DNA of 52,651 nucleotides from Gemmatimonadales bacterium (GTDB lineage: Bacteria > Gemmatimonadota > Gemmatimonadetes > Gemmatimonadales > GWC2-71-9), in NCBI GenBank assembly GCA_035761145.1, contig DASTRQ010000171.1:1-52651 (forward strand), in the 5' to 3' direction. The notes below the pieces were generated by a model. The model was not told the origin of the DNA and ran no database searches. It saw only the letters and a program-made list of their open reading frames with translations. How positions within the stretch are numbered: the stretch's first letter is position 1; every line of letters starts with the position of its first letter. Made by a program: the position numbers and the translations under genes. Below are positions 4,980 through 50,611 of this stretch, piece after piece.

Positions 4980-5071
4980 CGGGTGAAGTGGAGGTGAAGT
5001 CGCTGTCTAACGTCTTTGTTCACATCGACTTAAGTGATGATCTCCGAGTGGTACCGCGACGGGCGGTTTGG

Positions 5072-5153: not shown

Positions 5154-5190
5154 CTTACCATCGATCGACAGATTTTTTGACGATCCGGTC

Positions 5191-5258: not shown

Positions 5259-5270
5259 CGGTGTGCGCGG

Positions 5271-7682: not shown

Positions 7683-7735
7683 GATGTGTGTGGGATGAGG
7701 AGGAGCGGTGCACGACGGATGGTCAGGAGAAACTT

Positions 7736-7766
7736 GAACGCCGCTGACGGGGTGTCAACGGCGTTC
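7736..7766. repeat. 31-nt palindrome upstream of the IPT lipoprotein gene
   Basis: GAACGCCGcTGACggggtGTCAaCGGCGTTC, 54-84 nt upstream of the GTG at 7682. Confidence 0.85.
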
Positions 7767-7854
7767 GCAGTACGTGCATCGAGGTGTCGCTCAGGCTGTC
7801 AGGATCTTTGACGGACCCCCCCTCGATCCTACGATTCGTCAAGAAATTTGACGG

Positions 7855-8979: not shown

Positions 8980-9026
8980 CCGGGCGATGGTGGGGCGCGA
9001 GAAGCCGCCCGAGAAGCGGGTTCGGT

Positions 9027-9860: not shown

Positions 9861-9861
9861 T

Positions 9862-9882
9862 GGTCGAGGGTCGAGGGTCGAG
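9862..9882. repeat. (GGTCGAG)3 heptamer array followed by GTCACCG x2
   Basis: Exact tandem heptamers fill the 24-bp tsaD-lgt spacer. Confidence 0.95.
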
Positions 9883-9884
9883 AG

Positions 9885-10946
9885 TCACCGGTCACCGCCC
9901 ACCATCCCGGGCAGAGGCAGTACGGCTTTGGGCTCCAGGTCCCAGCCGTGGCGCTCGCCCTGGGCCAGGTGCCAGAGGCCGGCGGCGCCGATCATGGCGG
10001 CGTTGTCCTGGTTGAGTCGCGGCGTGGCGGCCACCACGCGCGCCGTTCCCTCGAGGCGCCGGCCGAGCGCCGTGAGCAGGGCCTGGTTCGAGGCCACGCC
10101 GCCCCCGACCACGGCGGTCGGGTGGCCGAGCGCCTCGACCAGGTGGGCCGTCTTCTCGACCAGGACCTCGACGGCGGCGTCCTGGAACTCCCGGCAGAGG
10201 TCGGCACGGTCGGCGGCCAGGTCGGCCGAGCGCTGGACCGCACGGAGCACCGCGGTCTTGAGCCCGCTGAAAGAAAACGCATACTCGTCCGGGCCGCTGC
10301 GACCCAGCTCACCGAGCATCGGGCGGGGGAACGGGAAGCGTCCGGGGCGCCCGTCCCGGGCCAGGCGCTCGATCTTGGGTCCCCCGGGGTAGTCGAGCCC
10401 GAGGAGGGTGCCCACCTTGTCGAACGCCTCGCCCGCGGCGTCATCCTTGGTGGCGCCGACGACGCGATACCGCCCCCACTCGGGAACGTCGAGCAGGAGG
10501 GTGTGGCCGCCGCTCACCAGCAGGGCGACGAACGGCGGGCGGAGCGTCGGGTCCTCGAGCGCCGCGGCGAAGAGGTGCCCTTCGAGGTGGTGCACGCCGA
10601 GGAAGGGCTTGTCGTGGACCCAGGCGAGGGCCTTGCCGTACATCGCGCCGACGAGGAGCGCGCCGACGAGGCCGGGCCCCTGCGTCACCACGATGCCGTC
10701 GAGCCGCTCCATCGTCGTCCCCGCCTCGGCCAAGGCGCGATCCACGATATCGGGGAGGGCCACGAGGTGGGCGCGGCTCGCCAGCTCGGGGACCACGCCG
10801 CCGAAGATGCGGTGCACGTCCTGCGACAGGATGACGACGCTCGCCGCGCGCGGATCGCCGTGGTGGCGGGGACCGGCGTCGCCGCTCCCCTCGACGACGG
10901 CGGCGCTGGTCTCGTCGCAGCTCGTCTCGAGCGCCAGGACGCGCAT
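9885..10946 (-). CDS. tsaD: tRNA N6-adenosine threonylcarbamoyltransferase
   Basis: MRVLALETSCDETSAAVV, HLEGH and GGVASN motifs of the Kae1/TsaD family. Confidence 0.92.
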   Translation of the reverse strand: MRVLALETSCDETSAAVVEGSGDAGPRHHGDPRAASVVILSQDVHRIFGGVVPELASRAHLVALPDIVDRALAEAGTTMERLDGIVVTQGPGLVGALLVGAMYGKALAWVHDKPFLGVHHLEGHLFAAALEDPTLRPPFVALLVSGGHTLLLDVPEWGRYRVVGATKDDAAGEAFDKVGTLLGLDYPGGPKIERLARDGRPGRFPFPRPMLGELGRSGPDEYAFSFSGLKTAVLRAVQRSADLAADRADLCREFQDAAVEVLVEKTAHLVEALGHPTAVVGGGVASNQALLTALGRRLEGTARVVAATPRLNQDNAAMIGAAGLWHLAQGERHGWDLEPKAVLPLPGMVGGDR

Positions 10947-25888: not shown

Positions 25889-26260
25889 CTACCGCGCTCG
25901 CGCCGCTTTCGCCGCCAGCGCCAGGGCGTCCCCGGTCTCGGGACCCAGGGCGTCGCGGGCGGGCGCGGTGAGCTGGTGCAGGGCGGCGGCGGCGGCCTCG
26001 GGGGTCCCCTGGGCCAGTTCGGCGAGCGCCGCGATGAGCGCGCGCCGCACGGGGGCGGGGACCGTGAGGGTGGCGAGCCGGCGCTCGAGCGCCTCGAGGC
26101 GCCGCTGGCGCGACTTGGGCGCCGCGGGGGTCTCCTGGGCCAGGTCCTCCGCCACCCGTGTCACCAGCCAGAGGGCGAAGACCCCCTCGCGCCGCGGACC
26201 TCGCGCGGTGCGCGCCAGCTGCTCCGCGAGGCGGGTGGTGGCGGGGGACCAGAGCGTCAT
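25889..26260 (-). CDS. hypothetical Ala-rich helical protein
   Basis: ATG 26260 overlaps the GT9 stop (ATGA). GC3-rich frame. I recognise no motif. Confidence 0.5.
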   Translation of the reverse strand: MTLWSPATTRLAEQLARTARGPRREGVFALWLVTRVAEDLAQETPAAPKSRQRRLEALERRLATLTVPAPVRRALIAALAELAQGTPEAAAAALHQLTAPARDALGPETGDALALAAKAARAR

Positions 26261-27285
26261 CGGGTGAGCCGCACCAGCGCGTCCTCGACCTCGGCGGGCG
26301 CGATGTCGCGGAGGCAGCGGTGGTGCCCTTCGGGGCAGACGGGGCCGCCGAACGGCGTGCAGGGGCGGCAGGGCAGGTCGCGCTCCAGCACGGTGGCCCG
26401 CGCGTGGTACGGGTAGAAGCCGAACGGCGCCACGGTGGGTCCCATCAGCGTCACGATCGGCGTGCCCACCGCGGTCGCCATGTGCATCACGCCGGTGTCG
26501 CCCACCACGAGCGCCCCGGCGCGCTGGAGGAGCGCGCCCGTCTCCTGCAGGGCGAACTCCCCGGCGGAGTTCTCGGCGGCGGCGTCGGGGTGCGCGGCGC
26601 GGGCCGCGGCCACGATGGCGTCCCCCACCTCGCGCTCGGCGCGGCCCCCGGTCACCACCAGCGCGCGGCCCGCGGCGGCGAGCCGCGCGGCGAGGGCGGT
26701 CCAGTACTCGGGGGGCCAGCGCTTGGTGAAGTGCGCCGCGCCGGGCCCGAGCAGGGTGAAGGGCCGCCCCGCGAGCCCGCGCGCGGCGAGCCACGCGTCC
26801 ACCCGCGCCACCGCCTCGGGGGCCACGAAGAATTCGAGCCCGCCATCGTCGGGGCGCACGTCGAGCCCCTCGGCCGCGTCGAAGAAGCGCTCCGGCTCGG
26901 GCACCGCGTCGCGATAGACGTTCCGCTTGAGGCGGATCAGCACCTCGCGCGCGAACCGGCGCTTGGAGTACTCGCGCCACCGCCCCGGGACGAGCCAGTG
27001 CAGCGCGCGCGAACGGAGCCCGCCGTGGAGGTCGAGGAGGTGGGTGAACCGCCGCGCGCGGAGCGCGCGGGCCAGCGGGAGGAGCGGCTCGTCGTCGCGG
27101 TAGGTGATGACCTCCGACAGCCGGGGCGAGGCGCTCACCAGCGGCGCGAACTGCGCCTTGGTGAGGAAGGCGATGTGCGCCGCGGGGTGCCGCGCGCGGA
27201 GCGCCCGCACCAGCGCGCTCGTGAGCAGGATGTCGCCCATCGAGCTGAAGCGGACGAGGAGGATGCGGGGGGCGGCGGGGGGCAC
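26257..27285 (-). CDS. glycosyltransferase family 9 (LPS heptosyltransferase-like)
   Basis: RILLVRFSSMGDILLTSALVRAL and GDTGVMHMA are typical of the RfaF/RfaC family. GTG start. Confidence 0.85.
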   Translation of the reverse strand: MPPAAPRILLVRFSSMGDILLTSALVRALRARHPAAHIAFLTKAQFAPLVSASPRLSEVITYRDDEPLLPLARALRARRFTHLLDLHGGLRSRALHWLVPGRWREYSKRRFAREVLIRLKRNVYRDAVPEPERFFDAAEGLDVRPDDGGLEFFVAPEAVARVDAWLAARGLAGRPFTLLGPGAAHFTKRWPPEYWTALAARLAAAGRALVVTGGRAEREVGDAIVAAARAAHPDAAAENSAGEFALQETGALLQRAGALVVGDTGVMHMATAVGTPIVTLMGPTVAPFGFYPYHARATVLERDLPCRPCTPFGGPVCPEGHHRCLRDIAPAEVEDALVRLTR

Positions 27286-27449
27286 GGGGGTAATGTACGC
27301 GGTCCGATGCCCGAAGTCCGAGGTCCGAGGTGCGGAGTCCGGGGTGTCGGGATGCCGGCCTCCCTGTGTCCCGGACTTCGCCCTTCGGACGCTTCCCCTC
27401 CGCTCCCCTGCCTCCTGTGCCGAACACCCCGCCCCCCCTAACTTCCAGC

Positions 27450-29024
27450 ATGGCCCGCCCCAAGCGCATCCTCTGGGTGGATGACGAGGTCGACTCGCTC
27501 ACCTCCCAGATCCTCTTCCTCGAGCAGCAGGGATTCGAGGTGGAGCGCGCCGCGCACGGCGACGACGCGCTGGTGCTGCTGCAGCGGCTCGACGTGGGCG
27601 TGGTGCTGCTCGACGAGCAGATGCCGGGGCGGCGGGGGCTCGAGCTCTTCCGGGACATCCGCGCGCACGACCCCGCGATGCCGGTGGTGATGGTCACCAA
27701 GAGCGAGGAGCCCGAGGTGCTCAAGGACGCCATCGGCGCCGAGGTGAGCGACTACCTGGTGAAGCCGGTGCACCCGCGGCAGGTGCTCACGGTGGTGACG
27801 CGGCTGCTCGAAGGGGACCGGATCCGGCAGCAGCGCCTCTCGCGCGATTTCGCGACGCGCTTCCGCGAGCTCGAGGCGCGCCGGGGCGAGGCGCTGCAGT
27901 GGCGGGAGTGGGTGGAGCTCACGGCCGAGCTGGCGCAGTGGGAGGCGCGGCTGGGCGAGGCGGACGAACCGGGGCTCCAGTCGGCGCTCGAGGGGCTGCA
28001 GGAGGCGCTCCGTCCCGACTTCGCGCGGTTCATCGCGCGGGAGTACCCGCGCTGGCTGGCCGACGACGCCGCCGACCGTCCCCCCCTCTCGGTGGATGTG
28101 GGGGCGGAATTCCTGCGCCCCGTGCTCGACGCGCACGGCAAGGCGCTGCTGGTGGTGGTGGACTGCCTGCGGCTCGACCAGTGGGAGGTCCTCCACCCGC
28201 TGCTCGCGCCGCGGTTCGAGGTCGAGACGGCGCACTATTTCTCGATCCTCCCCACCGCCACCCCCTTCGCGCGGAACGCGATCTTCTCGGGGCTCTTCCC
28301 GCTGGAGCTCCGCCGGCGGCATCCCGCGTGGTGGGGGGACCCGGCCGACGAATCGAGCCTCAACGCGCACGAGGCGGCGCTCCTGGCCGAGCAGCTGCAG
28401 ACCCTCACCGGCCGCGCGGTCCCGGTGCGCTACGAGAAGGTCTTCAGCGCCGGCGACGGCGAGGCGCTCCTCAAGCGGCTGCCGGCGCACCTGGCGCAGG
28501 AGGGGGTGACGGCGCTGGTCTTCAACTTCGTGGACCAGCTGGTGCACGGGCGCACCGAGCACAGCACCCTGCTCGAGGTCGCGCGCGACGCCGGTGCCAT
28601 CCGCCGGCTCACCCGCGCCTGGTTCGAGCGTTCGGCGCTGCTCGAGGCGCTCAAGGAGGCGGAGCGCCGCGACGTGCCGGTGCTCCTCACCACCGACCAC
28701 GGCTCCATCCACTGCTTCACCCCGGCCACCGTCTTCGCCCGGCACGACGTGACCAGCAACCTGCGCTACAAGTTCGGCGAGGACCTCCGCGCGGAGGATC
28801 CCGAGGCCGCCATCAGCGTCACCGACCTCGCGGCCTGGGGGCTCCCGGCGCGCGGGCCGCGCGAGCGGCTCCTGCTGGCCACCGGGGACCGGTTCTTCGT
28901 GTATCCCACCAAGCTGCGGGAGTACCAGGCGCGCTATCGCGGCGCGTTCCTCCACGGCGGGGTGACGCCCGAGGAGGTGGTGCTCCCCATCGCCCTGCTC
29001 ACGCCGCGCCGGGGGCGTCCGTGA
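27450..29024 (+). CDS. PorX-like response regulator: CheY receiver fused to PglZ (alkaline-phosphatase-fold) domain
   Basis: Receiver residues are present: DDE, LLDEQMPG (phospho-Asp), VMVTKS, YLVKP. PglZ motifs are present: VVVDCLR, ILPTATPFARN, TTDHGS, LHGG. Confidence 0.8.
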   Translation: MARPKRILWVDDEVDSLTSQILFLEQQGFEVERAAHGDDALVLLQRLDVGVVLLDEQMPGRRGLELFRDIRAHDPAMPVVMVTKSEEPEVLKDAIGAEVSDYLVKPVHPRQVLTVVTRLLEGDRIRQQRLSRDFATRFRELEARRGEALQWREWVELTAELAQWEARLGEADEPGLQSALEGLQEALRPDFARFIAREYPRWLADDAADRPPLSVDVGAEFLRPVLDAHGKALLVVVDCLRLDQWEVLHPLLAPRFEVETAHYFSILPTATPFARNAIFSGLFPLELRRRHPAWWGDPADESSLNAHEAALLAEQLQTLTGRAVPVRYEKVFSAGDGEALLKRLPAHLAQEGVTALVFNFVDQLVHGRTEHSTLLEVARDAGAIRRLTRAWFERSALLEALKEAERRDVPVLLTTDHGSIHCFTPATVFARHDVTSNLRYKFGEDLRAEDPEAAISVTDLAAWGLPARGPRERLLLATGDRFFVYPTKLREYQARYRGAFLHGGVTPEEVVLPIALLTPRRGRP

Positions 29025-30832
29025 ACACCTGGCGCCGGCTCATCGGCCAGCTGCGGCCCTACCGGGGCCGGTACGCGCTGGCCGTGCTCCTCTACGCCGC
29101 CGGGTCGGTGCTCGACGGCGCGGTGGTGGTGCTCATCATCCCCCTCCTCAAGTACCTCTTCGGCGAGGCGGGCGCGCTCGGCGGCGGGCACTCGGGGCTG
29201 GAGCGCTTCACCGAATGGCTGCTCCACCCGGTGCTGGCCGGCACCACCCCCGAGCAGGCGGTGCTCCGGGTGGTGGGGCTGCTGGTGGTCTCGCTGGTGG
29301 TGAAGAACGCCACCACCTACGCGGCGGGGCAGCTCTCGGTGGCGGTGCAGGAGGGGGTGGTGCGTGACCTCCGCACCTCGCTCTTCGCCCACCTGATGAC
29401 GCTCGACCTCCAGCTCTTCCAGCGGATGCGCGGGGGCCAGCTGCTGCAGCGCGTCATCACCGACGTGGACCAGAGCAAGACGGTCGTCAGCACCACCCTG
29501 GCGCGGCTGCTGCAGAACCTGTTCGAGATCATCGTGGCGGTGACGATCCTCCTTGCCGCCTCGTGGCGCCTCACGCTCCTGGCGTTCATCGGCGCGCCGC
29601 TGCTGGTGCTCGGGATGCAGTTCCTCGTGAAGCGCCTGCGGCGGCAGTCGCGCGCCCGCGCCGACGAGTGGGGCGAGATCACGAGCTACGTCGCCGAGCG
29701 CCTCGGCGCGATGAAGCTGATCCGGAGCTACGGCGCCGAGGCCCAGGAGCGCCAGCGCTTCCAGGCGCAGGCCAGCACCTACCGCCGCCGGGTGATCCGC
29801 ACCCAGCGCTACGCCTCGATGACGAGCCCGGTGAGCGAGCTCTTCGGCGGGATGGTGCTGGTGCTCATCCTCTGGGGCGGCACCCGGGCGGTGTTCGCGC
29901 ACCAGGGGCTCACGCCGCAGACGCTCATCTCGTTCCTCATCACCGCGCTCCGGATGCTCTCGCCGATCAAGTCGATCAGCCAGTTCCCGGCCACGATCGC
30001 CGTGGGGCTCGCGAGCGCCGACCGGGTGTACCAGCTGCTCGACACCCCGGGGAGCGAGGCCGACGCGCCGGGGGCGCGGCCGGCGAGCTTCGGCCGCGAG
30101 ATCGCCTTCGAGGACGTGCGCTTCCGCTACGGCGAGGACCGCGACGTGCTGCACGGCGTGAGCTTCACCGTGCGCCGGGGCGAGGTGGTGGCGCTGGTCG
30201 GGCCGTCGGGCTCGGGGAAGACCACGCTGGTGGAGATGCTCCCCCGCCTCCACGACCCCACCGGCGGGCGCGTCACCCTCGACGGCGTGCCGCTCACCGC
30301 GCTCGAGCGGCGGTCGGTGCGGGCCCTCATCGGGCTGGTGAGCCAGGACACGGTGCTGCTCAACGACACGGTGCGCAACAACATCACCTTCGGCCACGCC
30401 GGCGCCACCGACGCCCAGGTCGAGGCCGCGGCCCGCGCCGCCAACGCGCACGAGTTCATCGCCCAGCTCCCCGACGGGTACGCCACCGCGCTCGGCGAGC
30501 GCGGCACCCGGCTCTCCGGGGGGCAGCGCCAGCGCATCGCCATCGCGCGCGCCCTCCTGCGCGACCCGCCGATCCTCCTCCTCGACGAGGCCACGAGCGC
30601 CCTCGACACGGAGTCCGAGCGGCTGGTGCAGGAGGCCATCGACCGGCTGATGCGCGACCGCACGGTGCTCGTGATCGCCCACCGGCTGGCCACGGTGCGC
30701 GACGCCGACCGGATCCTCGTCCTCCACGAGGGCCGCATCGTGGAGCAGGGGGACCACGAGGCGCTGTACGCCGCGGGGGGGCTGTACCGCCGGCTCTACG
30801 ACCTGCAGTTCCGCGAGGAGCCCGCGGCGTGA
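29021..30832 (+). CDS. ABC exporter, fused permease/ATPase (MsbA-like)
   Basis: Six-TM exporter domain plus Walker A GPSGSGKTT, signature LSGGQRQR and Walker B ILLLDEATSALD. The GTG start overlaps the upstream TGA (GTGA). Confidence 0.85.
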   Translation: MNTWRRLIGQLRPYRGRYALAVLLYAAGSVLDGAVVVLIIPLLKYLFGEAGALGGGHSGLERFTEWLLHPVLAGTTPEQAVLRVVGLLVVSLVVKNATTYAAGQLSVAVQEGVVRDLRTSLFAHLMTLDLQLFQRMRGGQLLQRVITDVDQSKTVVSTTLARLLQNLFEIIVAVTILLAASWRLTLLAFIGAPLLVLGMQFLVKRLRRQSRARADEWGEITSYVAERLGAMKLIRSYGAEAQERQRFQAQASTYRRRVIRTQRYASMTSPVSELFGGMVLVLILWGGTRAVFAHQGLTPQTLISFLITALRMLSPIKSISQFPATIAVGLASADRVYQLLDTPGSEADAPGARPASFGREIAFEDVRFRYGEDRDVLHGVSFTVRRGEVVALVGPSGSGKTTLVEMLPRLHDPTGGRVTLDGVPLTALERRSVRALIGLVSQDTVLLNDTVRNNITFGHAGATDAQVEAAARAANAHEFIAQLPDGYATALGERGTRLSGGQRQRIAIARALLRDPPILLLDEATSALDTESERLVQEAIDRLMRDRTVLVIAHRLATVRDADRILVLHEGRIVEQGDHEALYAAGGLYRRLYDLQFREEPAA

Positions 30833-31821
30833 GCCCCCCGCCGCCGTTCGCCGGCCGCACGGTGGTCCTCGTGGGCCGCGTCGACGACGGGGCCCACGCG
30901 CACACCCCCCTCAAGCGCCGCGCCCTCGAGCGGCTCGGCTGCGCCGTGGCCATGGTCGAGCCGCGCCCGCGCGGGCTCCTGGCCCGGTTCCGCGGCGGCG
31001 ACCTCGTCGCCCGCGTGGGCGAGGCGCTCCGCGACCGTCGTCCCGACCTCGTGCTCGTGCTCGGCGCCGACGGCCCCGCCCCCGCCGCGGTGGACGAGCT
31101 GCGCCAGGTGCACGCCTGCCCCTGGGCGCTCTGGTGGCCCAGCGACGCGGGGCGGCACCCGACCTGGGACCTCGTGCGCGCGGTGGACCACACCTGGGTC
31201 ACCGGGCGCGACCTGGTCGGCAAGGTGCCGGGGGTGCGCTTCCTCCCCCACGCCGCCGACCCGTCGGTGCACCGTCCCCTCCGGTCGCGCGACGAGTTCC
31301 GCGCCAACGTCGTCTTCGCGGGCGAGGCCACCCCGCGGCGCGAGGCGATGGTGGCCGCGGTGCTCGAGTTCGGCGTGGCGGTGTGGGGGCGCGGGTGGCG
31401 GCAGACCCGCCTGCGCGACTACTGCCGCGGCGAGGCGGTGAGCGGCGAGGACTACCTGCGCGCCTACGCCGGCGCCACCGTGGCGCTCAACATCCACCGC
31501 GAGGGCCCCGACGGGACGACGCCGGGGGCGAGCGGGTGCAACGCGCGCACGTTCGAGCTCGCCGCGATGGGGCTGGCGCAGGCGGTGGACGCGCGCGAGG
31601 ACCTCCCCGCGCTCTTCACCCCCGGCGAGGAGCTCCTGGTGTACGAGGATCCGGAGGGGCTCCGGGCGCTGGTGCGCGAGCTCGTGGCCGACCACGCCCG
31701 CGCCGAGGCGCTGGGGCAGGGCGCGCGCCGCCGCGCGCTCGGCGAGCACACCTACATCCACCGGCTCACCACGCTCCTCGAGGCGGCGCTCCCGGCCCGC
31801 GCGGACGACCCGGCGGAGTAG
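30829..31821 (+). CDS. CgeB-family (Glyco_trans_1_2-like) glycosyltransferase
   Basis: NVVFAGEA..., ALNIH..., CNARTFELAAMG..., LVYEDPEGL... resemble the CgeB/DUF3880 architecture. GTGA overlap with the exporter. Confidence 0.6.
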   Translation: MSPPPPFAGRTVVLVGRVDDGAHAHTPLKRRALERLGCAVAMVEPRPRGLLARFRGGDLVARVGEALRDRRPDLVLVLGADGPAPAAVDELRQVHACPWALWWPSDAGRHPTWDLVRAVDHTWVTGRDLVGKVPGVRFLPHAADPSVHRPLRSRDEFRANVVFAGEATPRREAMVAAVLEFGVAVWGRGWRQTRLRDYCRGEAVSGEDYLRAYAGATVALNIHREGPDGTTPGASGCNARTFELAAMGLAQAVDAREDLPALFTPGEELLVYEDPEGLRALVRELVADHARAEALGQGARRRALGEHTYIHRLTTLLEAALPARADDPAE

Positions 31822-31824
31822 CGC

Positions 31825-32775
31825 TCAGCGCCCCGCGTCGTCGGGGCCGTCCAGCAGGCGCCCCGCGGGGAGGACGCCGTCGCGCAGGTACGCGGTCAGC
31901 ATCCGCAGGTGCCCGGCGGCCATCACCCGGTAATGGAAGTGGCGCATCACGCGGTCCCGGCACGCCTCGGGTTCGGCGCGCGCCGCCGCGTCCGCCGCGG
32001 CCACCAGCTCGTCGAGCGTCTCCCCCAGGCGGCCCACGTCGGGGGTGACGATCTCGGGGAGCGCGCCGCGGCGGGTGCCCAGCACGGGCGTGCCGCTCGC
32101 CAGCGCCTCGATGAGCGTGAGGCCGAAGGGTTCGTCCCAGAGCGCCGGCATCCAGAGGAGCCGCGCGCCGGCGAGGAGCTCGGCCTTGCGCGCCCCGCCC
32201 ACGCTCCCCACGAATCGGAGCCCGCGCCGGAGGCTGGGGCGCCACCCGCCCGCCACGACGAGCCGGCGCCCGCTCCGCCGGCAGCCCTGCACCGCCCAGC
32301 GCCACCCCTTGATGGCGTGGAGCCGGCCGAGGAAGAGATCGTAGCCCTCCTTGACGGCGCGGAAGGTGAGCTCCGCGGGGTCGAGCCCGTTGTGGACGTA
32401 CGCCACCGCGCCGTGGCGGCGCGCGTGGTCGGCCGAGAGGTACACCGTGTTGGGGGGGCGCACCACGCCGGGCCGCGAGTTGCCGTGGAGATGGAACACC
32501 CACGGGAGCCCCGGATCCCGGCGCAGCGGGGCCGAGGCGAGCAGGACGTCGAGCCCGGCGGGGAGGAGGGGGCGGAGGTCGAAGTCGGGGGCCTGCGCGG
32601 CGCGGGGCTCCACCTCGACCACGCGCGCCCACGGCAGGCGCGATCCGCGCCCCGCGACGACGGTCACCGCGTGGCCCAGCTCCGCCAGGCCGCGCGAGAG
32701 CCACGTCACCACGCGCTCGGTGCCCCCGTACTCGGCGGGGGGAAGCTGGCCCCAGTGGTAGAGCGCGATGTGCAT
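31825..32775 (-). CDS. glycosyltransferase family 4
   Basis: YGGTERVV N-terminus and EPFGLTLIEALASGTPVL (the E-x7-E region). Confidence 0.8.
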   Translation of the reverse strand: MHIALYHWGQLPPAEYGGTERVVTWLSRGLAELGHAVTVVAGRGSRLPWARVVEVEPRAAQAPDFDLRPLLPAGLDVLLASAPLRRDPGLPWVFHLHGNSRPGVVRPPNTVYLSADHARRHGAVAYVHNGLDPAELTFRAVKEGYDLFLGRLHAIKGWRWAVQGCRRSGRRLVVAGGWRPSLRRGLRFVGSVGGARKAELLAGARLLWMPALWDEPFGLTLIEALASGTPVLGTRRGALPEIVTPDVGRLGETLDELVAAADAAARAEPEACRDRVMRHFHYRVMAAGHLRMLTAYLRDGVLPAGRLLDGPDDAGR

Positions 32776-32823
32776 CGGGTGGCGCCGGGTTAGTTTTGAC
32801 GGGTCACGAAGGCCAGGGGCCGG

Positions 32824-33684
32824 ATGCCGAAGATCTCAGGGTTCACGATCGTCCGTAACGCGGTGAAGCTGATGTTCCCCCTCGAGGCGAGCATCCGCTC
32901 GCTGCTGACCGTGTGCGACGAGGTGGTCGTCAACGTGGGCCGCTCCGAGGACGAGACGCTCGAGGTGGTGCGGGGGATCGGCGACCCGCGCATCCGGATC
33001 ATCGAGACCGTGTGGGCCACCGACAAGCAGAACTACGTCCTGGGCGACGAGACCCTGCGCGCGATGCGCGCCTGCACCCATCCGTGGGGCATCTACATCC
33101 AGGCCGACGAGGTGCTGCACGAGCGGGGGGCCGAGGAGCTCCGGCGCGTCATCCAGGCGGTGGACGCCGACCCGGTGGTCGAGGGGCTGCTGGTGAAGTA
33201 TCACCACTTCTACGGCGGCTTCGACGTGGTGGCCACCCACCGCCGCTGGTACCGGCGCGAGGTGCGGGCGGTGCGGCTCGACCCCGCGCTCGACATCCGT
33301 CCCTACCAGGGGGCGCAGGGGTTCCGGGTGGGGCCGGAGCACCGGAAGATCCGCGCCCGGCTCACCACCGCCGAGATGTTCCACTACGGGTGGTGCCGCC
33401 CCACCGCCGCGCTCCGCGCCAAGCGCGAGAACGACAAGGTGATGTATCCCTGGCGTCCCCACAGCGACGACATCCCGCTGCTGCGCTGGATCCCCGGGCT
33501 CAAGCCCTTCCCCGGCCAGCATCCCGCGGTGGCGGCGCCGTACGTGGCGCGGTACCGCGACCAGATCCACCCGGTGGGGCCCCGGTTCTGGACCTGGAAG
33601 TTCGCCCGGATCTACGCCTCCGGCTGGGTGGAGAAGCTCACCGGCTGGCGGCCCTTCGAGTTCCGCAACTACCGCATCGTCTAG
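32824..33684 (+). CDS. glycosyltransferase family 2-like protein
   Basis: The N-terminal ISGFTIVRNA...DEVVVNVGRSEDETLEVV pattern fits a GT-A fold. ADE may serve as the DxD-like motif. Confidence 0.6.
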   Translation: MPKISGFTIVRNAVKLMFPLEASIRSLLTVCDEVVVNVGRSEDETLEVVRGIGDPRIRIIETVWATDKQNYVLGDETLRAMRACTHPWGIYIQADEVLHERGAEELRRVIQAVDADPVVEGLLVKYHHFYGGFDVVATHRRWYRREVRAVRLDPALDIRPYQGAQGFRVGPEHRKIRARLTTAEMFHYGWCRPTAALRAKRENDKVMYPWRPHSDDIPLLRWIPGLKPFPGQHPAVAAPYVARYRDQIHPVGPRFWTWKFARIYASGWVEKLTGWRPFEFRNYRIV

Positions 33685-34295
33685 GCCGGCCGCTCCACCG
33701 AGAACACCCACACCGACGCGCTGTGCTGGGGCCAGGGGAGGAGGTTCCGCCACGGCTTCCGGTACAGCCGCTTCAGGGTGACCCGCCCCCACGGCTCGAG
33801 CGCGCGCCGGAGGAGCGGTTCGTCGTACTCGCGCTTGTGGTCGGGGTCCCAGAACCAGCGCCCCACCGGCGTCGTACCGACCAGGCGCCCGCCGGGACGC
33901 ACGTACCGCATCAGCTCGCCCGCGAAGGCGCGGTCGTCGGGGACGTGCTCGATCACCTCGTTGGTGAACACCACGTCGAAGGTCTCCCCCGCCGGCGGGT
34001 CGGTCAGGAACCTGGGCCCCGCGGCGGCGCCCCGGAACCGTTCGGCCTGCGCGATCGCCGCGGGGGCCACGTCGTACCCGGTGGCCTCGGCGCCGGCCCG
34101 CTGCAGCGCGATGGTGAAGACGCCGTCCATGCAGCCCCAGTCGAGCACCCGGCGCCCGCGGACCGGCACGGTGCGGAGCAGGTGGCGGTGCCGCCAGAGG
34201 AGCCGGGCGATGCGCCGCTCGAGGTCCAGCGCGTCGGCGCCATAGCGCGCCACGGTGGCGCGGTACTGCCGGTCGTACTCCGCCCGGTCGGTCAT
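33681..34295 (-). CDS. class I SAM-dependent methyltransferase
   Basis: Motif I VLDWGCMDG and the acidic loop YDV... post-I, followed by FTNEVIEHV. Confidence 0.8.
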   Translation of the reverse strand: MTDRAEYDRQYRATVARYGADALDLERRIARLLWRHRHLLRTVPVRGRRVLDWGCMDGVFTIALQRAGAEATGYDVAPAAIAQAERFRGAAAGPRFLTDPPAGETFDVVFTNEVIEHVPDDRAFAGELMRYVRPGGRLVGTTPVGRWFWDPDHKREYDEPLLRRALEPWGRVTLKRLYRKPWRNLLPWPQHSASVWVFSVERPA

Positions 34296-35275
34296 CCCCC
34301 CTCCGGTGATGGGTATTCGCGCCCCGCGAGGAGGAGCGCCATGCGCGCTGCATAGGTGTGGTGCGCCAGCGCGTGCGCCCGTCCCGCCTCCGCGAGCCGC
34401 GCCCGCTGGTCGGGATCGGCCAGGAGCTCGCGGACGATGGCCACGCACTCCTCGGTGCTCCGGTACCAGCGGCAGTGCGCCCGGTCGCGCGCGAAGGTCT
34501 CGATGCCCGGCACCAGCGGGCCCAGGTAGCATCCCCCGCACCCGAGGATCTTCCACATCCGGTTGCTGGCGGAGGCCTCGTCGTGCGCCTGTTCCGGCAG
34601 CGCGTTGGCGCCGAGCGCGATGGCCGCGCTCGCGACGACGCGGGCGAACTCCCGCCCGTGCACCGGTCCCCCCGCCACCGGGAGGTCCGCCGGCGCGTCC
34701 TGCCACCCGGGGCCCCTGATCTGCAGGCGCGCCACGGCGCCCACGGCGCGCAGCACCTCCCAGCGGTACGGGTAGGGCCCGCTTCCCACGAACGAGACGT
34801 CGCACCGGTATTCCGTGCGCGGCGGCGCGGGGCGGTCGCGTCCGGGATCCATCCCCTGCGGCAGGAACCGCACCCGGCGCACCCCCTCCGCCCGGTACCG
34901 CTCGCGCTGGCCGCGGTAGGTGAGGTAGAACTCGTCCACCAGGCGCGCGAGCTCGAGGGTGCCGGGGTGCGGGGCGGGGTCGAAGAACCAGAACACGCTC
35001 CGCCGCCCGGCGAAGAGCCGCCGGAGTCGCGCCTCGCCGAGCCGCCACGCGTGCCGGGTCACGAGCACCGTGTCCGGCTCGAAGCTCGCGGCGCGCCACT
35101 CGGCGGCGCGCGCGCCGAGCGGCCCGAGGCGGCGGCGCCACCCCACGACGTCCACCAGCCGCACCGCGTGCCCCAGGTCCCGGGCCGCGCGCGCGATGGC
35201 GTCCTCCGTCTTGCGGGCGCCGCCGGCGCCGAGGATCACGAGTCGGCGCGCGGGCGCGGGTCCGGGAGCGTCCAT
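34292..35275 (-). CDS. CgeB-family (Glyco_trans_1_2-like) glycosyltransferase
   Basis: DVSFVGS..., SNRMWKILGCGG..., and an ADPDQRARLAEAGR...HTY tail. Paralogous in pattern to 30829-31821. ATGA overlap with the methyltransferase. Confidence 0.6.
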   Translation of the reverse strand: MDAPGPAPARRLVILGAGGARKTEDAIARAARDLGHAVRLVDVVGWRRRLGPLGARAAEWRAASFEPDTVLVTRHAWRLGEARLRRLFAGRRSVFWFFDPAPHPGTLELARLVDEFYLTYRGQRERYRAEGVRRVRFLPQGMDPGRDRPAPPRTEYRCDVSFVGSGPYPYRWEVLRAVGAVARLQIRGPGWQDAPADLPVAGGPVHGREFARVVASAAIALGANALPEQAHDEASASNRMWKILGCGGCYLGPLVPGIETFARDRAHCRWYRSTEECVAIVRELLADPDQRARLAEAGRAHALAHHTYAARMALLLAGREYPSPEGG

Positions 35276-35295
35276 ACGCCACTAAGTTACCACCC

Positions 35296-36399
35296 ATGTC
35301 GCCGCGACCACTACGCGCCCTGCTGATCACCGCCGCCACCGGCTGGCGGGGGTCTTCCGCCAGCTTCGCCAAGATCGCGCGCGGGCTCCTCGACCGCGGC
35401 CACGGCGTGCGGCTGGTGGCGGGGGGCGCGCCGCTCGCGGAGCGCTTCCGCGCGCTCGGTCTCGACGCCAGCGAGCTCCGCCTCAAGAACACCGGGCTCC
35501 GTGAGGTGCGCGCCCTGCGTGCCATCGTCCGCGCGCAGGGGACCACGGCGGTCCTCGCGGACACCCCGCGCGACCTGCGCGTCTCGCTCCTGGCGGGGTG
35601 GTTCCGCCTCCCGGTGGTGTACCGCTACAACCTCAACTACCGCCGGCCGCGCACCGACCTGGGCGACCGGATCTTCCTGGCCGGGGCGGCGGGCTTCGCC
35701 TACCAGAGCGCCTTCATCGAAGGGGAGGCGGTGCGCCACCAGCCCTTCCTGGCCCGGCGGCGGCATTGGCGGGTGCCCAACGGATACGACCTCGACGGCG
35801 AGCTCGCCCCCCGGCCCGGCGCGGGAGCGGCGCTCCGTGCGCGGCTCGACCTGCCCGCCGACGTCCCGATCGTCCTCACCGGTTCCGCGCTGGCCGAGAA
35901 CAAGGGGCACGACGTGGTCTTCGCGGCGCTCGCGCGGCTGGCCGGCGAGGGGCTGCGGTTCGTCTACGTCCTCCCGGGGCAGGGGAAGCGCGAGGCCGAG
36001 CTCCGCGCCCTGGCGCAGCGCCTGGCGGTGCCGACGCACTTCCTTGGCTTCGTGGAGCCCGCGGCGATGCCCGAGGTGATGGCCGCCGCCGACATCGTGG
36101 CGCACCCCGCCACCACCGAGATCTTCCCCAACGTGGTGGCCGAGGCGATGGCGCTCGAGCGCGCGGTGGTGGCGGCGGATGCCGGCGGGATCCCCGAGGT
36201 GGTGGGGGACGAGGGGGCGGGCGTGCTCGTGCCGGGGACCGACGTGGCGGCGTGGAGCGGCGCGCTCCGGGCCCTCCTGGTGGACCCCGCCCGCCGCGCC
36301 GCGATGGGACAGGCGGCGCGCCGGCGCCTGGCGCGCGAGTTCCCCCTCGCGCGGATGCAGCAGGGTTACGCCGAGCTCCTCACGGAGATCTCCCGATGA
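35296..36399 (+). CDS. glycosyltransferase family 4
   Basis: GW(R)GS N-terminal loop and EIFPNVVAEAMALERAVVAADAGGIPEVV. Confidence 0.8.
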   Translation: MSPRPLRALLITAATGWRGSSASFAKIARGLLDRGHGVRLVAGGAPLAERFRALGLDASELRLKNTGLREVRALRAIVRAQGTTAVLADTPRDLRVSLLAGWFRLPVVYRYNLNYRRPRTDLGDRIFLAGAAGFAYQSAFIEGEAVRHQPFLARRRHWRVPNGYDLDGELAPRPGAGAALRARLDLPADVPIVLTGSALAENKGHDVVFAALARLAGEGLRFVYVLPGQGKREAELRALAQRLAVPTHFLGFVEPAAMPEVMAAADIVAHPATTEIFPNVVAEAMALERAVVAADAGGIPEVVGDEGAGVLVPGTDVAAWSGALRALLVDPARRAAMGQAARRRLAREFPLARMQQGYAELLTEISR

Positions 36400-37595
36400 C
36401 GCTGGCCCCCCACCTCCTCCTGGCCTACGACTTCCCCCCGATCGGCGGCGGCATCGCGCGGTGGATGGGGGAGATGGCGCGCTGGTATCCGGAGCGCTCC
36501 CTCATCGTCTCGACGGGGACGTTGGACGGCGCCGCGGCGGCCGACGCGCGACTCCCGGTGCCGGTGGACCGGGTGGGCGTGCCGGCGCGGCGGCTCCGCA
36601 CCCTGCCGGGGCTGGTGCGCTGGTCGCTGCGCGTGGAGCGGCTCGCGCGGGGCAGGGGCGTGAGCTTCGCGTGGTGCGGCAATTTCCGTCCGGCGGCCTA
36701 CCCCGCGCGCTGGCTCCTGCGCCGCCGCGGCGTGCCGTACGGCGTGGTCCTCCACGGCGGCGACCTCCTCATCCTCGAGACCCAGGCGCGCCGGAGCGTG
36801 CGGAAGCGCGCCGTGGCCCGCCGGCTCCTGGGGGACGCCGCCGTGCTCGTCACCAACAGCGGCTTCACCCGCGAGCTGGCGCTCCGGACCCTGGCGGGGC
36901 TCGACCTTCCCCCCGCCCCCGAGCGCGCCGTCGTGGTGCCCCTCGGCACCGACCCGGCGCGCTTCTCGCCGCGGGTGGATCCGGCGCCGGCGCGCGAGCG
37001 GTTCGGCCTGGGCGACGGGCCGCTCCTCCTCACCGTGGCGCGCCTCACGCCGCACAAGGGGATCGACACGGCGCTCCGCGCGCTGGCGCTCCTCGCGGGG
37101 GAGCATCCCGCCCTGCGCTACGCGGTGGCCGGCGACGGCAACGACGGCCCCCGCCTCCGGGCGCTGGCCGCCGAGCTCGGCGTGGCCGACCGGGTGCACT
37201 GGCTGGGGCCGGTGGGGGACGACGTGCTGCCGTCCCTGTACCGCGCGGCGACGGCGTACCTTGGCCTCTCGCGGCGCGAGGGGGTGGACGTCGAGGGATT
37301 CGGGATCTCCCTCGTGGAGGCGTCGGGGTGCGGCGTTCCGGTGGTGGGGGGGCGGAGCGGGGGGATCCCCGACGCGGTGCGCGACGGCGAGACCGGCTTC
37401 CTGGTGGCGCCGGACGATCCCGCCGCCGCGGCCGAGGCGGTGCGGCTCCTCCTGGCCGACCCGGCGCTGGCCCACCGGCTGGGCGACGGCGGACGGCGCG
37501 CCGTGGAGACGCACTACCACTGGGCCCGGGTGGCGGCCGACCTGCGGCGGCTGGGCGACGCCGCGGCTACGGCGACTCGGGGGAGCGGGCGCTGA
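36396..37595 (+). CDS. glycosyltransferase family 4
   Basis: FPPIGGGIAR N-terminus, PHKGID, EGFGISLVEASGCGVPVVGGRSGGIPDAV. ATGA overlap with the upstream GT4. Confidence 0.85.
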   Translation: MTLAPHLLLAYDFPPIGGGIARWMGEMARWYPERSLIVSTGTLDGAAAADARLPVPVDRVGVPARRLRTLPGLVRWSLRVERLARGRGVSFAWCGNFRPAAYPARWLLRRRGVPYGVVLHGGDLLILETQARRSVRKRAVARRLLGDAAVLVTNSGFTRELALRTLAGLDLPPAPERAVVVPLGTDPARFSPRVDPAPARERFGLGDGPLLLTVARLTPHKGIDTALRALALLAGEHPALRYAVAGDGNDGPRLRALAAELGVADRVHWLGPVGDDVLPSLYRAATAYLGLSRREGVDVEGFGISLVEASGCGVPVVGGRSGGIPDAVRDGETGFLVAPDDPAAAAEAVRLLLADPALAHRLGDGGRRAVETHYHWARVAADLRRLGDAAATATRGSGR

Positions 37596-38667
37596 TGGCC
37601 CAGGTGGGGCAGTGGCGCACGTACTGGCCGTCGAGCGGCGACCAGCGCTGACGGGGGACGAGCACCCGCGCCTTGTCCCCTTCCATCGCGAAGACATCGG
37701 GGGCCCACATCACGCAGGCGCCGCATCCCACGCAGCGGTGCGGGTCCACCGCCACCTCGACGGTGCGCCGGGGGTAGATCCCTTCCGCGCCCGCGGGGAA
37801 GGACGGCGGGATCCGCTCGAAGGCGTCGAGCGTGCTGCGGTACCCCTCCTCGATGAGCTCCCGCGTGTGCGTGAACGAGAACATCGAGATGTGCTCCACG
37901 CGCGGGTGGACGAAGAGGAGCGGCGGGGTGCGCCAGTGCTCCAGCCGCTCGCGGAGCATCGCGTGCATCACCAGCTCGAGCCCGCGCGCGTAGGTGGCGG
38001 CGAACCCCTCGTGCTCGAAGCCGCCGCGCAGGGTGCTCGTGGCCCCCACGTGCACCGCGAGCACCGGCCCCGGCACCAGCGCCGACGCCACCCGGACGGG
38101 AAGGTTCTCGATCACCGCCCCGTCCACGCAGAGCCGGCCGTCGATGTCGCGCGGCGGGAAGAGCCCGGGGAGCGCGCACGAGGCGAAGACCGCGTCGGCC
38201 ACGCGCACGTGGTCGAGCCCCGGCCGGCCCCAGAGCACCTGGGCGCCGGTGTCGAGGTCCACGGTGGCCACCACGAGCGGGCGGTCGAGGTCCCGGAAGG
38301 TCCGGTCCCCCACCAGCGAATGGATGAGCGTGTCGAGCGGCTCGGCGCGGTAGACGGCGGGCGCCGCCATCCGCTTGAGCGCCATGTCGGCGTGGGCGAT
38401 GCGGAAGACGTCCTTCCGCCGCACCGCCATCGCGGCCGCCCGGAGCGATCGCGCGTCATGCCCCGCCGCCCACGCCGCGGCGATGAGCGAGCCCATCGAG
38501 CACCCCACGACGAGGTCGGGGGTCATCCCCATCTCCTCGAGCGCGTGGAAGACCCCGATGTGGGCCATCCCCTTGAGGCCGCCGCCGCCCAGCACCAGCG
38601 AAAAGGGTCCGTCGAAGCGCACCGCTTGTCCACGCGTCAGAGACGGGGGTAACGTACCGACCTCCAT
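37567..38667 (-). CDS. patatin-like phospholipase fused to a C-terminal single-cluster ferredoxin domain
   Basis: Patatin motifs GGGGLKG, GCSMG (GxSxG) and DGAV. C-terminal CVGCGACVMWAPDVF...HCPTWAI matches the CxxCxxC...CP ferredoxin pattern. The first 15 codons are GC3-poor, so GTG 38622 is the likelier start. Confidence 0.75.
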   Translation of the reverse strand: MEVGTLPPSLTRGQAVRFDGPFSLVLGGGGLKGMAHIGVFHALEEMGMTPDLVVGCSMGSLIAAAWAAGHDARSLRAAAMAVRRKDVFRIAHADMALKRMAAPAVYRAEPLDTLIHSLVGDRTFRDLDRPLVVATVDLDTGAQVLWGRPGLDHVRVADAVFASCALPGLFPPRDIDGRLCVDGAVIENLPVRVASALVPGPVLAVHVGATSTLRGGFEHEGFAATYARGLELVMHAMLRERLEHWRTPPLLFVHPRVEHISMFSFTHTRELIEEGYRSTLDAFERIPPSFPAGAEGIYPRRTVEVAVDPHRCVGCGACVMWAPDVFAMEGDKARVLVPRQRWSPLDGQYVRHCPTWAISARSPESP

Positions 38668-46748: not shown

Positions 46749-47396
46749 TCACCGTACCACGAACTTGGGCGACCTCGCTTCCAGCCGGAGGCTCGGCAGT
46801 CCCGCCACCGAGAGGAGGGTGCGGCGGATCGCCTTGGTGATGGCGCCGCCGATCGGTTCGCTGCCGGTCGTGGCGGGGGCCACCTCGCCCGAGAGGAACT
46901 GCTCGAGGTCGGCGATGTCGGTGTCCGAGAGGGTGGAGACCTCGAGCGTCACGGCGTAGTAGTACTCGCCGGGGTCGCGCGGGCCGACGCGGACCTCGCG
47001 CGGCACCGCGAGCCCCTCCGCCAGCGCGCGCAGGTCGGCGAAGCGGGAGATCCGGTTGGTGAAGCGGAACACCTCGCCCACCTGGTACTGGTCGAGGAGG
47101 GGCTCGTGGCGGATCACGACGTCCCACTCGGTCTGCCGCACGAAGGCGTCGAGGAGGCTCCGCGAGCGCCAGACCTCCACCTTGTAATGCAGCCGCACCG
47201 GGAAGCCCGAGGCGAGCATCGCCGTGACGCGGGGGTCGCGCACCACGTCGCGCGTGACGAGGCGCGCGTGCTCCGTGCGGCCGCTCGAGTCGGGGGTGAG
47301 CGAGACCTCGAGGCGCACGCGCGCCTCCTCCTGCGCGCTGAGCGGCGCCGCGGCGCCCGCCGCCGCGAGGGCGAGGAGCAGCAGGGTCCGTCGCAC
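46749..47396 (-). CDS. DUF4390-like periplasmic protein
   Basis: The GTG start shares one base with the upstream TAG. Signal peptide LLLLALAAAGAAAPLSAQ. Beta-rich ~190-aa body (RLHYKVEVWR..., YYYAVTLEVS...). The family call is from memory of the DUF4390 pattern and context. Confidence 0.55.
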   Translation of the reverse strand: MRRTLLLLALAAAGAAAPLSAQEEARVRLEVSLTPDSSGRTEHARLVTRDVVRDPRVTAMLASGFPVRLHYKVEVWRSRSLLDAFVRQTEWDVVIRHEPLLDQYQVGEVFRFTNRISRFADLRALAEGLAVPREVRVGPRDPGEYYYAVTLEVSTLSDTDIADLEQFLSGEVAPATTGSEPIGGAITKAIRRTLLSVAGLPSLRLEARSPKFVVR

Positions 47397-49153
47397 TAGA
47401 AGCGGCGCTGCAGGCGGAGGAAGAACCGCACCGGCTCGCCGCCGGTGAGCGACTTGCTCAGGTAGGCGCCGAGCCCGCCGGCGTCGAGCCCGATGCCGAC
47501 CTCGGAAAGCCACTCGTCAAGGGCGGGGATCCGGTCGTTGGGCACGCGGCCCGGGCCGTCCCCCGTGAGCCACCCCTTGCCGGCGTCGCCGTGGACCACG
47601 ACGTCCACCTGGTCGATCCCGATGGCCTGCTCCACGCCGCTCCGCTCCCGGTAGCGGTACAGCAGCCCCAGGTCGAGCCGGGTGCGGAACTCCGCCTGCA
47701 CCACCAGCGAGCGGTCGCAGAGCGCGGGGAGCGCCGGGTCGGCCGGCGCCCCTTCGCCGCACCGGTCGGCGCGGAAGCCGTAGCCGGGGAGGGGGTCGGG
47801 CCCCCCCACCGAGACCCGCTCCTGCAGGGGGAGGGGATCGCCGCCGAGCCAGCCGCCCCCCGCGGCGCGCAGGTGGAGCCGCATCGCGGGGGTGAGCCGG
47901 GTGTAGCTCCGCGCGTCGAACCAGAAGCGCTGGAAGGCGTACGACCCGTCGGTGGGGATGGGGCCGCGCACGGTGGCCGGCAGGTCCACCGGCCCCACGT
48001 CGCGCGAACTGGAGCGCTCCCAGGTGGCGCGGATCCACGTGCCCGACGTGGGGAGGTGCCGGTCGTTCCGGGTGTCGTAGGCCACGCCCAGGTGGAAGGT
48101 CCGGTACCGTCCGTCGTCCACCAGCGGGTTGGGCCGCCACGGTTCCTGCGCGCGGAAGAGGGTCCAGGGGTCGTTGGCCGGGAGCGAACGCTGCCGCTCG
48201 GTGCGCCACCCCGCCTCGAGCCGGGTGGAGCTTCCCACCCAGTTGTAGGCGTAGAAGGCGACCCCTTCGTTCAGGTAATAGTCGCGGTAGTCGCGGTGCA
48301 GCAGCAGGCTCGACCACCCGACCTCGCTCCGGCCCAGCGGCTCCGCCTCGATGGCCTGCACGGTCTGCGAGGCGCGCACCCCCGCGCCCCAGCCGTGATG
48401 GTTGGAGGTCCCCTGCGAATAGTCGAACCTGCCGTCATACCCCACCTGCTCGCCCAGCTCGGTCGGGTCGCCGGTGGTGCGGATGATGCCGAGCACGCCG
48501 AGCGAGGCGCGCCGGTCGGGCCCGATGGGATAGCTGAAGCGCGGACCGAAGGTGATCGGGAGCCCCTCCACCCGGTTGTAGGTGCCGCCGGTGGAGAAGA
48601 AGAGGGTGGTGCGCACCTTCCCCGTCTGGAACGAGCGCTGCGCCCCGCCGAAGTCGAGCAGGCCGCGTCGCCTCGGTCGCGGGACGAGCCGCCCCTCCGC
48701 GTCCCGCATCACCGGGGCGACGGTCGGGTAGGCCTCGAGCCGTCCCGCGATGGCCGTGGTGTCACCCACCACGCCGCCGCCCACCACCAGGACCTCACCC
48801 GTGATGCGCCCCCCGGCCAGGAGCTCGAGGTCGCCGTTCACCACCAGCACCGGCCCCGACAGCTCCCCCGCGACCCGGAGCGGCCCCCGCCAGACCGCCA
48901 CCGGCCCGCGCAGCAGCGCGCCCGCCGGGAGGACGACCTCGCCGTCGAGCCGCGTGGTGGCGGGGTCGTTGAACCGCCCCAGCACGCGCTCCAGCACCTC
49001 GCTCGGCAGGCCGCTCCGCTCCGCGGTCGGCGCCGCCGGCGCGTCGGGGTCGATCACGATCACCGAGTCCTGGGCGGACGCCCGGGAGGCGATGCCGACG
49101 AGGAGGAGCGCGACGAGGTGACCGGTGACCAATGTCCGGTGACAGGGCGTCAT
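47396..49153 (-). CDS. outer-membrane beta-barrel (Omp85/surface-antigen-type) with bactofilin-like N-terminal region
   Basis: ATG 49153 has AAGGA upstream. Signal peptide ...GIASRASAQ. A repetitive G-x-V/L beta-helix-like stretch (VLPAGALLRGPVAVWRGPLRVAGELSGPVLVVNGDLELLAGGRITGEVLVVGGGVVGD). A long alternating barrel with an LPGYGF loop motif and terminal F (LQRRF). Confidence 0.65.
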   Translation of the reverse strand: MTPCHRTLVTGHLVALLLVGIASRASAQDSVIVIDPDAPAAPTAERSGLPSEVLERVLGRFNDPATTRLDGEVVLPAGALLRGPVAVWRGPLRVAGELSGPVLVVNGDLELLAGGRITGEVLVVGGGVVGDTTAIAGRLEAYPTVAPVMRDAEGRLVPRPRRRGLLDFGGAQRSFQTGKVRTTLFFSTGGTYNRVEGLPITFGPRFSYPIGPDRRASLGVLGIIRTTGDPTELGEQVGYDGRFDYSQGTSNHHGWGAGVRASQTVQAIEAEPLGRSEVGWSSLLLHRDYRDYYLNEGVAFYAYNWVGSSTRLEAGWRTERQRSLPANDPWTLFRAQEPWRPNPLVDDGRYRTFHLGVAYDTRNDRHLPTSGTWIRATWERSSSRDVGPVDLPATVRGPIPTDGSYAFQRFWFDARSYTRLTPAMRLHLRAAGGGWLGGDPLPLQERVSVGGPDPLPGYGFRADRCGEGAPADPALPALCDRSLVVQAEFRTRLDLGLLYRYRERSGVEQAIGIDQVDVVVHGDAGKGWLTGDGPGRVPNDRIPALDEWLSEVGIGLDAGGLGAYLSKSLTGGEPVRFFLRLQRRF

Positions 49154-49205
49154 GCCGACTGTCCTTTGGTGGATCGTACGGGCGATCATCATCGGGATCT
49201 CCCAC

Positions 49206-49229
49206 GGGGCGTGGGTCGCGGGTCGCGGG
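49206..49229. repeat. (GGGTCGC) heptamers / four G-tracts
   Basis: GGGGcgtGGGtcgcGGGtcgcGGG in the regulator-to-barrel spacer, followed by GTCACYW repeats. Confidence 0.9.
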
Positions 49230-49262
49230 TCACTTGTCACCAGTCACCACTTACCGACCTCC

Positions 49263-50609
<1,347 letters not shown>

Positions 50610-50611
50610 CG

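Follow-up and report, generated by a model that had tools for sequence, protein, structure and literature searches.

A porX gene overlapping an MsbA-like exporter gene in the class Gemmatimonadetes and its candidate link to lipopolysaccharide export

Results

The window analysed here is a whole contig of 52,651 nucleotides (DASTRQ010000171.1) with a GC content of 74%, taken from a soil-type Gemmatimonadales metagenome-assembled genome (MAG) that is 77% complete. At the protein level, the nearest relatives of the window bear the label Gemmatimonadales. Our subject is porX (27450-29024, + strand), which encodes a 524-residue protein with a receiver domain and a PglZ phosphodiesterase domain of the alkaline-phosphatase superfamily, together with the genes that follow it on the same strand. 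Directly behind porX lies a gene for an MsbA-like ABC exporter half-transporter of 603 residues (29021-30832, +; ABC_membrane E 5e-38, ABC_tran E 9e-36), comprising a transmembrane domain (TMD) and a nucleotide-binding domain (NBD), and behind this a gene for a CgeB-like glycosyltransferase of the Glyco_trans_1_2 family (30829-31821, +; PF13524 E 2e-32). The TGA stop codon of porX (29022-29024) overlaps the GTG start codon of the exporter (29021-29023), which reads ccGTGAac at 29021-24, and the TGA of the exporter (30830-30832) overlaps the GTG of the cgeB-like gene (30829), which reads gcGTGAgc at 30829-32. Both GTGA overlaps had been described in an earlier note on this DNA and can be read directly from it. 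The N-terminus of the exporter is conserved from residues 1-6 onward in relatives. A scan for terminator-like sites or hairpins between the three genes found none in this 74% GC DNA. Upstream of porX, a divergent intergenic region of 164 bp (27286-27449) is the presumed promoter region of both the porX-ABC-cgeB genes and an oppositely oriented glycosyltransferase family 9 (GT9) gene, and a sigma-70 consensus scan of this region gave no match, again in DNA of 74% GC.

The product of porX, which begins MARPKRILWVDDE, matches the Pfam families Response_reg over residues 7-116 (E 4e-25) and PglZ over residues 231-422 (E 1e-17). It scores 510.1 bits on the NCBIfam equivalog T9SS_RR_PorX (NF052313), for which the cut-off is 300, and covers model positions 2-513 of 513. 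Consistently, the solved PorX structures of Flavobacterium johnsoniae (PDB 8TED, 8P6F) and Porphyromonas gingivalis (7PV7, 7PVK) match residues 3-520 at E ~1e-105, with an identity of roughly 37-40% from end to end. In an alignment with 53 full-length representatives of the PorX family, the receiver pocket residues D11, D12, D55, T83 and K105 are all present and are 91-100% conserved among the 54 sequences. The alkaline-phosphatase-type set of the PglZ domain (D238, T271, D362, H366, D416, H417 and H502) is likewise complete, which brings the count to 12 of 12 key residues. The motifs in this half of the protein are VVVDCLR (235-241), TATPFARN (269-276), NFVDQLVHGR (359-368), TTDHGS (414-419) and LHGG (501-504). 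A HMMER alignment to solved PorX equates T271, D362 and H366 with T272, D361 and H365 of P. gingivalis PorX, where mutation of these residues abolishes activity (PMC9757075). The active site of PorX binds pGpG, a breakdown product of c-di-GMP, and cleavage has been shown for oligoadenylates (PMC9757075); PorX also binds PorL (PMC5005315). The earlier proposal of a PorX-like CheY-PglZ protein is therefore upheld, its catalytic residues are properly aligned with those of the solved structures, and both of its halves look active.

In a maximum-likelihood tree of 76 PorX sequences, the 13 from Gemmatimonadota form one clade with 100/100 support, and the remainder of the tree largely follows phyla. 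Because of this placement, we assign the window protein as a true PorX orthologue and not a mere look-alike. A PglZ domain could also point to phage defence of the bacteriophage exclusion (BREX)/Pgl type, in which the protein would have no part in signalling, and a weak match to BREX_PglZ_3 does exist. However, this match reaches 81 bits against a cut-off of 250, the PorX equivalog fits over the full length, a receiver domain is present, and porX is a single-copy, vertically inherited core gene. The window also holds no brxC, pglX or other BREX gene. We reject this reading and give it a negligible chance of being correct.

The earlier note had also called the regulator an orphan with no type IX secretion system (T9SS) gene nearby. 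As a description of the window this stands, as profile scans of the window found no T9SS gene and no kinase beside porX, and the sole kinase in the window (50612-51904) has a sigma-54 regulator of its own as partner. As a departure from PorX it does not stand, because porX is also an orphan in Porphyromonas: the genes of the PorXY-SigP cascade are unlinked in P. gingivalis, with porX at PGN_1019 and porY at PGN_2001 (PMC4800418). The arrangement is thus normal for PorX. The window's kinase gene forms part of a one-strand run (46749-51904, -) that encodes a DUF4390 protein, an Omp85-like protein, the sigma-54 response regulator and the histidine kinase, and is unrelated to porX. Elsewhere in the window, a gene for a large IPT/TIG-domain protein adjoins one for a GGDEF diguanylate cyclase (5271-9117, -), which is of note only because PorX binds pGpG.

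The top NCBIfam model for the exporter is TIGR02203 (MsbA_lipidA), which it matches over the full model length with 522.7 bits. Because this score is under the equivalog cut-off of 602, we label the protein MsbA-like and not MsbA. Among the four paralogues of the genome it scores highest on this model (the others reach 500, 444 and 377), and the other three are best described as MsbA_rel or SmdA. MsbA structures in the PDB match the exporter at E 1e-92 to 1e-102, and its N-terminal extension of ~60 residues aligns poorly with most of them. The exporter is therefore considered MsbA-like and the best candidate of this genome for a lipid A flippase, with lipid A as its putative substrate. A full-length orthologue is present in 40 of 41 relatives of the same order, PorX-less ones included.

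To place the gene pair in a wider context, neighbourhoods were surveyed in these 41 relatives and at 80 PorX loci from public genomes (12 Gemmatimonadota and 68 from other phyla). The exporter lies directly after porX in 27 of the 28 same-order loci that have downstream sequence. The pair is also found in all 12 public Gemmatimonadota loci, Longimicrobiales included, and in four of four further families of the class, in one of which ~3 kb separates the two genes. It is found at none of the 68 PorX loci of other phyla of the Fibrobacteres-Chlorobi-Bacteroidetes (FCB) group, which comprise Bacteroidota, Ignavibacteriota, Latescibacterota, Eisenbacteria, Calditrichota, Balneolota, Rhodothermota, Zixibacteria, KSB1, Cloacimonadota and Poribacteria. 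In the deep-branching Gemmatimonadota families f10-f12, porX lies among GT9-like genes; six of seven loci have no exporter behind porX and the seventh has it at a distance. Because of these loci, a phylum-wide pairing is rejected, and the pairing is class-wide, conserved and lineage-specific. The coupling described in the earlier note is thus not a peculiarity of this genome. Within the class, the pair is kept across families in which PorX is only ~50% identical and the surroundings have been reshuffled, and the exporter is the only near-invariant partner of porX. A literature search found no paper that links PorX with MsbA or describes this arrangement in Gemmatimonadetes.

The wider setting of the pair is less constant. 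The earlier note had placed it in a glycosyltransferase cluster, which is true of the window's family; in families f2 and f3 the pair is bordered by dnaB-like and patatin genes, so that the glycosyltransferase embedding is a family-level feature only. In the window the cluster extends over 26257-37595, and its reported GT9 gene, three GT4 genes, two CgeB-like genes and methyltransferase gene are all recovered, whereas the GT2-like assignment falls under threshold. The GT9 gene (26257-27285, -; Glyco_transf_9 E 7e-29), divergent from porX, encodes a heptosyltransferase-like protein of the lipopolysaccharide (LPS) core type; its top NCBIfam model is heptosyltransferase II, with 118.9 bits under a cut-off of 134.6, and its position upstream of porX is conserved in family f1. 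Beyond the CgeB-like gene that ends the overlapping trio follow a GT4 glycosyltransferase (31825-32775, -; Glyco_trans_1_4, Glycos_transf_1), the possible GT2-like protein (32824-33684, +), for which the evidence is weak (Glycos_transf_2 E 0.004, under cut-off, with no NCBIfam match), and a methyltransferase dependent on S-adenosylmethionine (33681-34343, -; Methyltransf_23/11/12), the start of which is approximate and was taken from the third-position GC (GC3) profile. The cluster continues with the second CgeB-like glycosyltransferase (34292-35275, -; PF13524 E 4e-25) and two further GT4 glycosyltransferases, at 35296-36399 (+; Glycos_transf_1 E 9e-31) and, with an approximate start, at 36363-37595 (+; Glycos_transf_1 E 4e-40). 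Both of its flanks hold housekeeping genes: dnaB-like, yebC, ruvCAB, queA and tgt make up one, while the opposite flank has patatin, oppC, tyrS and PBP1. A conserved hypothetical protein of ~130 residues (25889-26281, -), which has no Pfam or NCBIfam match, is kept upstream of the porX locus across the order and by tblastn lies beside GT9 or porX in most relatives. The patatin-like phospholipase (37567-38667, -) carries a fused ferredoxin domain of the single-cluster 4Fe-4S type at its C-terminus, and a homologue also lies 3' of porX-ABC at two further Gemmatimonadota loci, immediately behind the pair in L034 and after ~2 kb in L035.

Parts of the type IX system are encoded outside the window. 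SprA, the secretion pore, scores above cut-off in the window's own genome (contigs C123 and C149) and in 32 of the 41 relatives. Across the phylum it does so in three quarters of the genomes, or 224 of a set of 301 (299 genomes at least 90% complete, plus the window's MAG). In this set, 221 genomes have both PorX and SprA, 56 have PorX only, three have SprA only and 21 have neither, so that 21 of the 24 PorX-less genomes are also SprA-less. Hardly any genome with SprA has lost PorX, as would be predicted of a type IX regulator. All matches to the PorV equivalog NF033710 were under its cut-off, and the broader PorV_fam model was used instead; by this model a PorV/PorQ-family outer-membrane protein is encoded on the sprA contig C123 (L114 3968-5140, -), with 123 bits against a cut-off of 90. 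The GldM models TIGR03517 and PF12081 found no match in any Gemmatimonadota, and this says nothing either way because the same models also miss lineages with 66-121 cargo proteins that bear a type IX C-terminal domain (CTD). A paralogous ABC exporter on contig C123 (L113 16029-17801, +), for which MsbA_rel is the top family with 630 bits, lies 9-14 kb from sprA, as does the PorV/PorQ-family gene; judged by coordinates, several relatives share this layout.

The permeases LptF and LptG export LPS at the inner membrane. On contig C123 (L113), sprA (1233-7295, -) is the divergent neighbour of lptF (7254-8906, +) and lptG (8795-9997, +), and an M28 peptidase gene adjoins sprA on its opposite flank. 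The arrangement of sprA with lptF-lptG was found in 16 of 16 Gemmatimonadota, in which seven families were sampled, with M28 beside sprA in 14 of them. It also occurs in eight other FCB genomes (Latescibacterota, Eisenbacteria, Chlorobi/Ignavibacteria-like and others) and in none of six Flavobacteriia/Sphingobacteriia. There are thus three separate adjacencies between type IX and LPS genes: porX with the msbA-like gene in the class, porX with GT9 in basal families, and sprA with lptFG.

Although PorX tends to accompany SprA, 56 of the 277 PorX-bearing genomes are SprA-less, with no SprA match even at E 0.001, and these include whole genera and single-contig genomes. A bona fide PorV is missing from 16 of 17 SprA-less genomes tested and is present in 10 of 10 SprA-bearing genomes of the class. 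In the 15 SprA-less genomes examined, porX keeps all 12 key residues, and the exporter lies behind it in 14. Within the SprA-less genus g87, the dN/dS of porX is 0.05-0.10 at dS 0.16-0.78. PorX is thus maintained by purifying selection in the absence of the secretion pore. Each gene is also found without the other. In three PorX-less genomes (G010, G025, G039), porX has been cleanly excised and a full-length exporter orthologue stays at the same locus. The exporter therefore works without PorX and behaves like a housekeeping gene, and any link between the two is not an obligatory one but regulatory or accessory. The strongest argument for a function beyond secretion is that porX persists in pore-less genera, and the strongest against a tight module is that the exporter persists without porX.

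Discussion

Our analysis suggests, with a probability of roughly three in four, that the window encodes what is, by family, an ordinary PorX, which works as a zinc phosphodiesterase and adaptor switched by phosphorylation and in this class shares a transcript and translational coupling with LPS export genes. By homology with PorX of P. gingivalis and F. johnsoniae, a kinase encoded elsewhere would phosphorylate the receiver at Asp55. Phosphorylation would then lead to dimerisation and switch on the two-zinc PglZ phosphodiesterase, which would cleave small oligonucleotides. In the class, porX appears to be the first gene of an operon with 4-nt overlaps, followed by the exporter and, in the window's family, by glycosyltransferases of the LPS-core type. 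This position and these overlaps suggest that the regulator and the exporter are made together from one mRNA. PorX may therefore be seen as an envelope-biogenesis signalling protein, the output of which would serve type IX secretion where that system exists. It would be co-expressed with LPS export and would possibly act on it, with the basic function of the exporter independent of PorX. A role of PorX in envelope glycolipid export, of the kind hinted at in the earlier note, is an inference; it gains some weight because porX is under selection in genera without SprA and PorV, and loses some because the exporter is kept without porX.

Several observations weigh against this account. Gene adjacency does not establish a link at the protein level, and the exporter scores 522.7 bits on an MsbA equivalog that demands 602. 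In two genomes of two genera (G013, locus L009, and G089, locus L184) porX is directly followed by the CgeB-like gene, with the exporter missing from between them; in G013, which is 88% complete, no full-length exporter orthologue was found elsewhere in the genome. No PorY, SigP or PorL/M (GldL/M-type motor) partner was identified; PorY, SigP and PorL are not encoded in the window, and no partner-specific profile or reference sequence was used for these three. The association of PorX with SprA (odds ratio 27.6, Fisher p 4e-11) is uncorrected for phylogeny. Finally, type-A CTD cargo (TIGR04183) numbers 0-2 proteins per genome in 24 genomes of the class, SprA-bearing ones included, and the window's own genome has one marginal match; in the basal families the counts are 66 in G048 (f12) and 121 in G050 (f11). 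On these profile counts, cargo recognition in the window's class must presumably be different or reduced.

Two further readings concern what the gene pair means. Both sit inside the PorX identity and are compatible with it. PorX of the class Gemmatimonadetes could primarily regulate lipid A/LPS export by acting on or with the exporter, in an action gated by phosphorylation or oligonucleotides, with control of type IX secretion secondary or absent. This would account for the 56 of 277 PorX-bearing genomes that lack SprA and the 16 of 17 that lack a bona fide PorV, and for pore-less genomes that keep an intact porX next to the exporter at a dN/dS of 0.05-0.10. It is also in keeping with the near-invariance of the exporter as partner of porX, the GT9 LPS-core-like genes around porX in basal families, and the near absence of classical CTD cargo from the class. 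However, 21 of 24 PorX losses fall in SprA-less genomes, which argues that it is the T9SS that makes PorX indispensable. The exporter also stays at its locus after clean loss of porX, and porX persists without an adjacent exporter in G013 and G089. We consider such a primary role improbable.

Alternatively, the adjacency of porX and the ABC gene may have been fixed by historical accident at the base of the class and kept since then by operon inertia, through a shared promoter and overlapping codons. There would then be no functional link, and PorX would do only what Bacteroidota PorX does. The restricted distribution of the pair fits this explanation, as it is found in none of 68 loci of other phyla and is missing from six of seven basal Gemmatimonadota loci, and so do the loss of either gene alone and the variation of the other neighbours among families. 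Inertia has more difficulty with a pair that outlasts reshuffling across families in which PorX is ~50% identical, and it leaves the selection on porX in genera without SprA and PorV unexplained. Moreover, sprA-lptF-lptG in 16 of 16 Gemmatimonadota and porX-GT9 in basal families bring the separate T9SS-LPS links to three. We regard an accident as unlikely on balance, though as an explanation to be taken seriously. A bolder proposal is that PorX is, in this class, above all a regulator of outer-membrane lipids and a partner of the exporter controlled by phosphorylation and oligonucleotides, which selection would keep even where the SprA/PorV pore has been lost, and that type IX secretion and LPS transport were already wired to each other in the ancestor of the FCB superphylum. 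Three gene pairs, porX-msbA, porX-GT9 and sprA-lptFG, point to such ancestral wiring, and we hold the proposal as a whole to be doubtful.

PorX has been studied almost only in Bacteroidota, as a switch for type IX secretion. A class in which porX is wired to a putative lipid A exporter gene and stays under strong selection where the pore has been lost provides a natural experiment in which the function of PorX can be told apart from secretion. Should the link be functional, it would connect a two-component and oligonucleotide signal to LPS export. This would fit dependencies between type IX secretion and LPS known from Porphyromonas, where A-LPS serves as the anchor of type IX cargo (PMC8545088) and LpxE, a phosphatase of lipid A, requires a working T9SS (PMC12704123). 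Should the link not be functional, the locus would be a well-conserved operon of an ordinary PorX.

Comparison with known systems places the locus as follows. The PglZ protein of BREX systems (BrxZ) shares the alkaline-phosphatase-superfamily fold of the PglZ domain and its metal site with the window protein, but it has no receiver domain and lies in multi-gene defence islands, and the window protein fails the BREX models. The exporter resembles MsbA of E. coli and other bacteria as an ABC exporter of homodimeric type, in its TMD-NBD order and in its place among transferase genes of the LPS-core type. It differs from MsbA in its score under the TIGR02203 cut-off, in the N-terminal extension of ~60 residues and in having three paralogues in the genome, one of them beside sprA. 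The regulator is most like PorX of P. gingivalis (PDB 7PV7, 7PVA, 7PVK) and F. johnsoniae, with which it shares the two-domain architecture, the length, the phospho-acceptor pocket, the threonine nucleophile and the Asp/His zinc ligands, as well as an orphan gene without an adjacent kinase in a genome of the FCB group that encodes SprA together with a member of the PorV family. Unlike in those species, the window's class has almost no type-A CTD cargo, orthologues of the regulator are under selection in relatives without SprA and PorV, and porX here heads an operon that includes an MsbA-like exporter.

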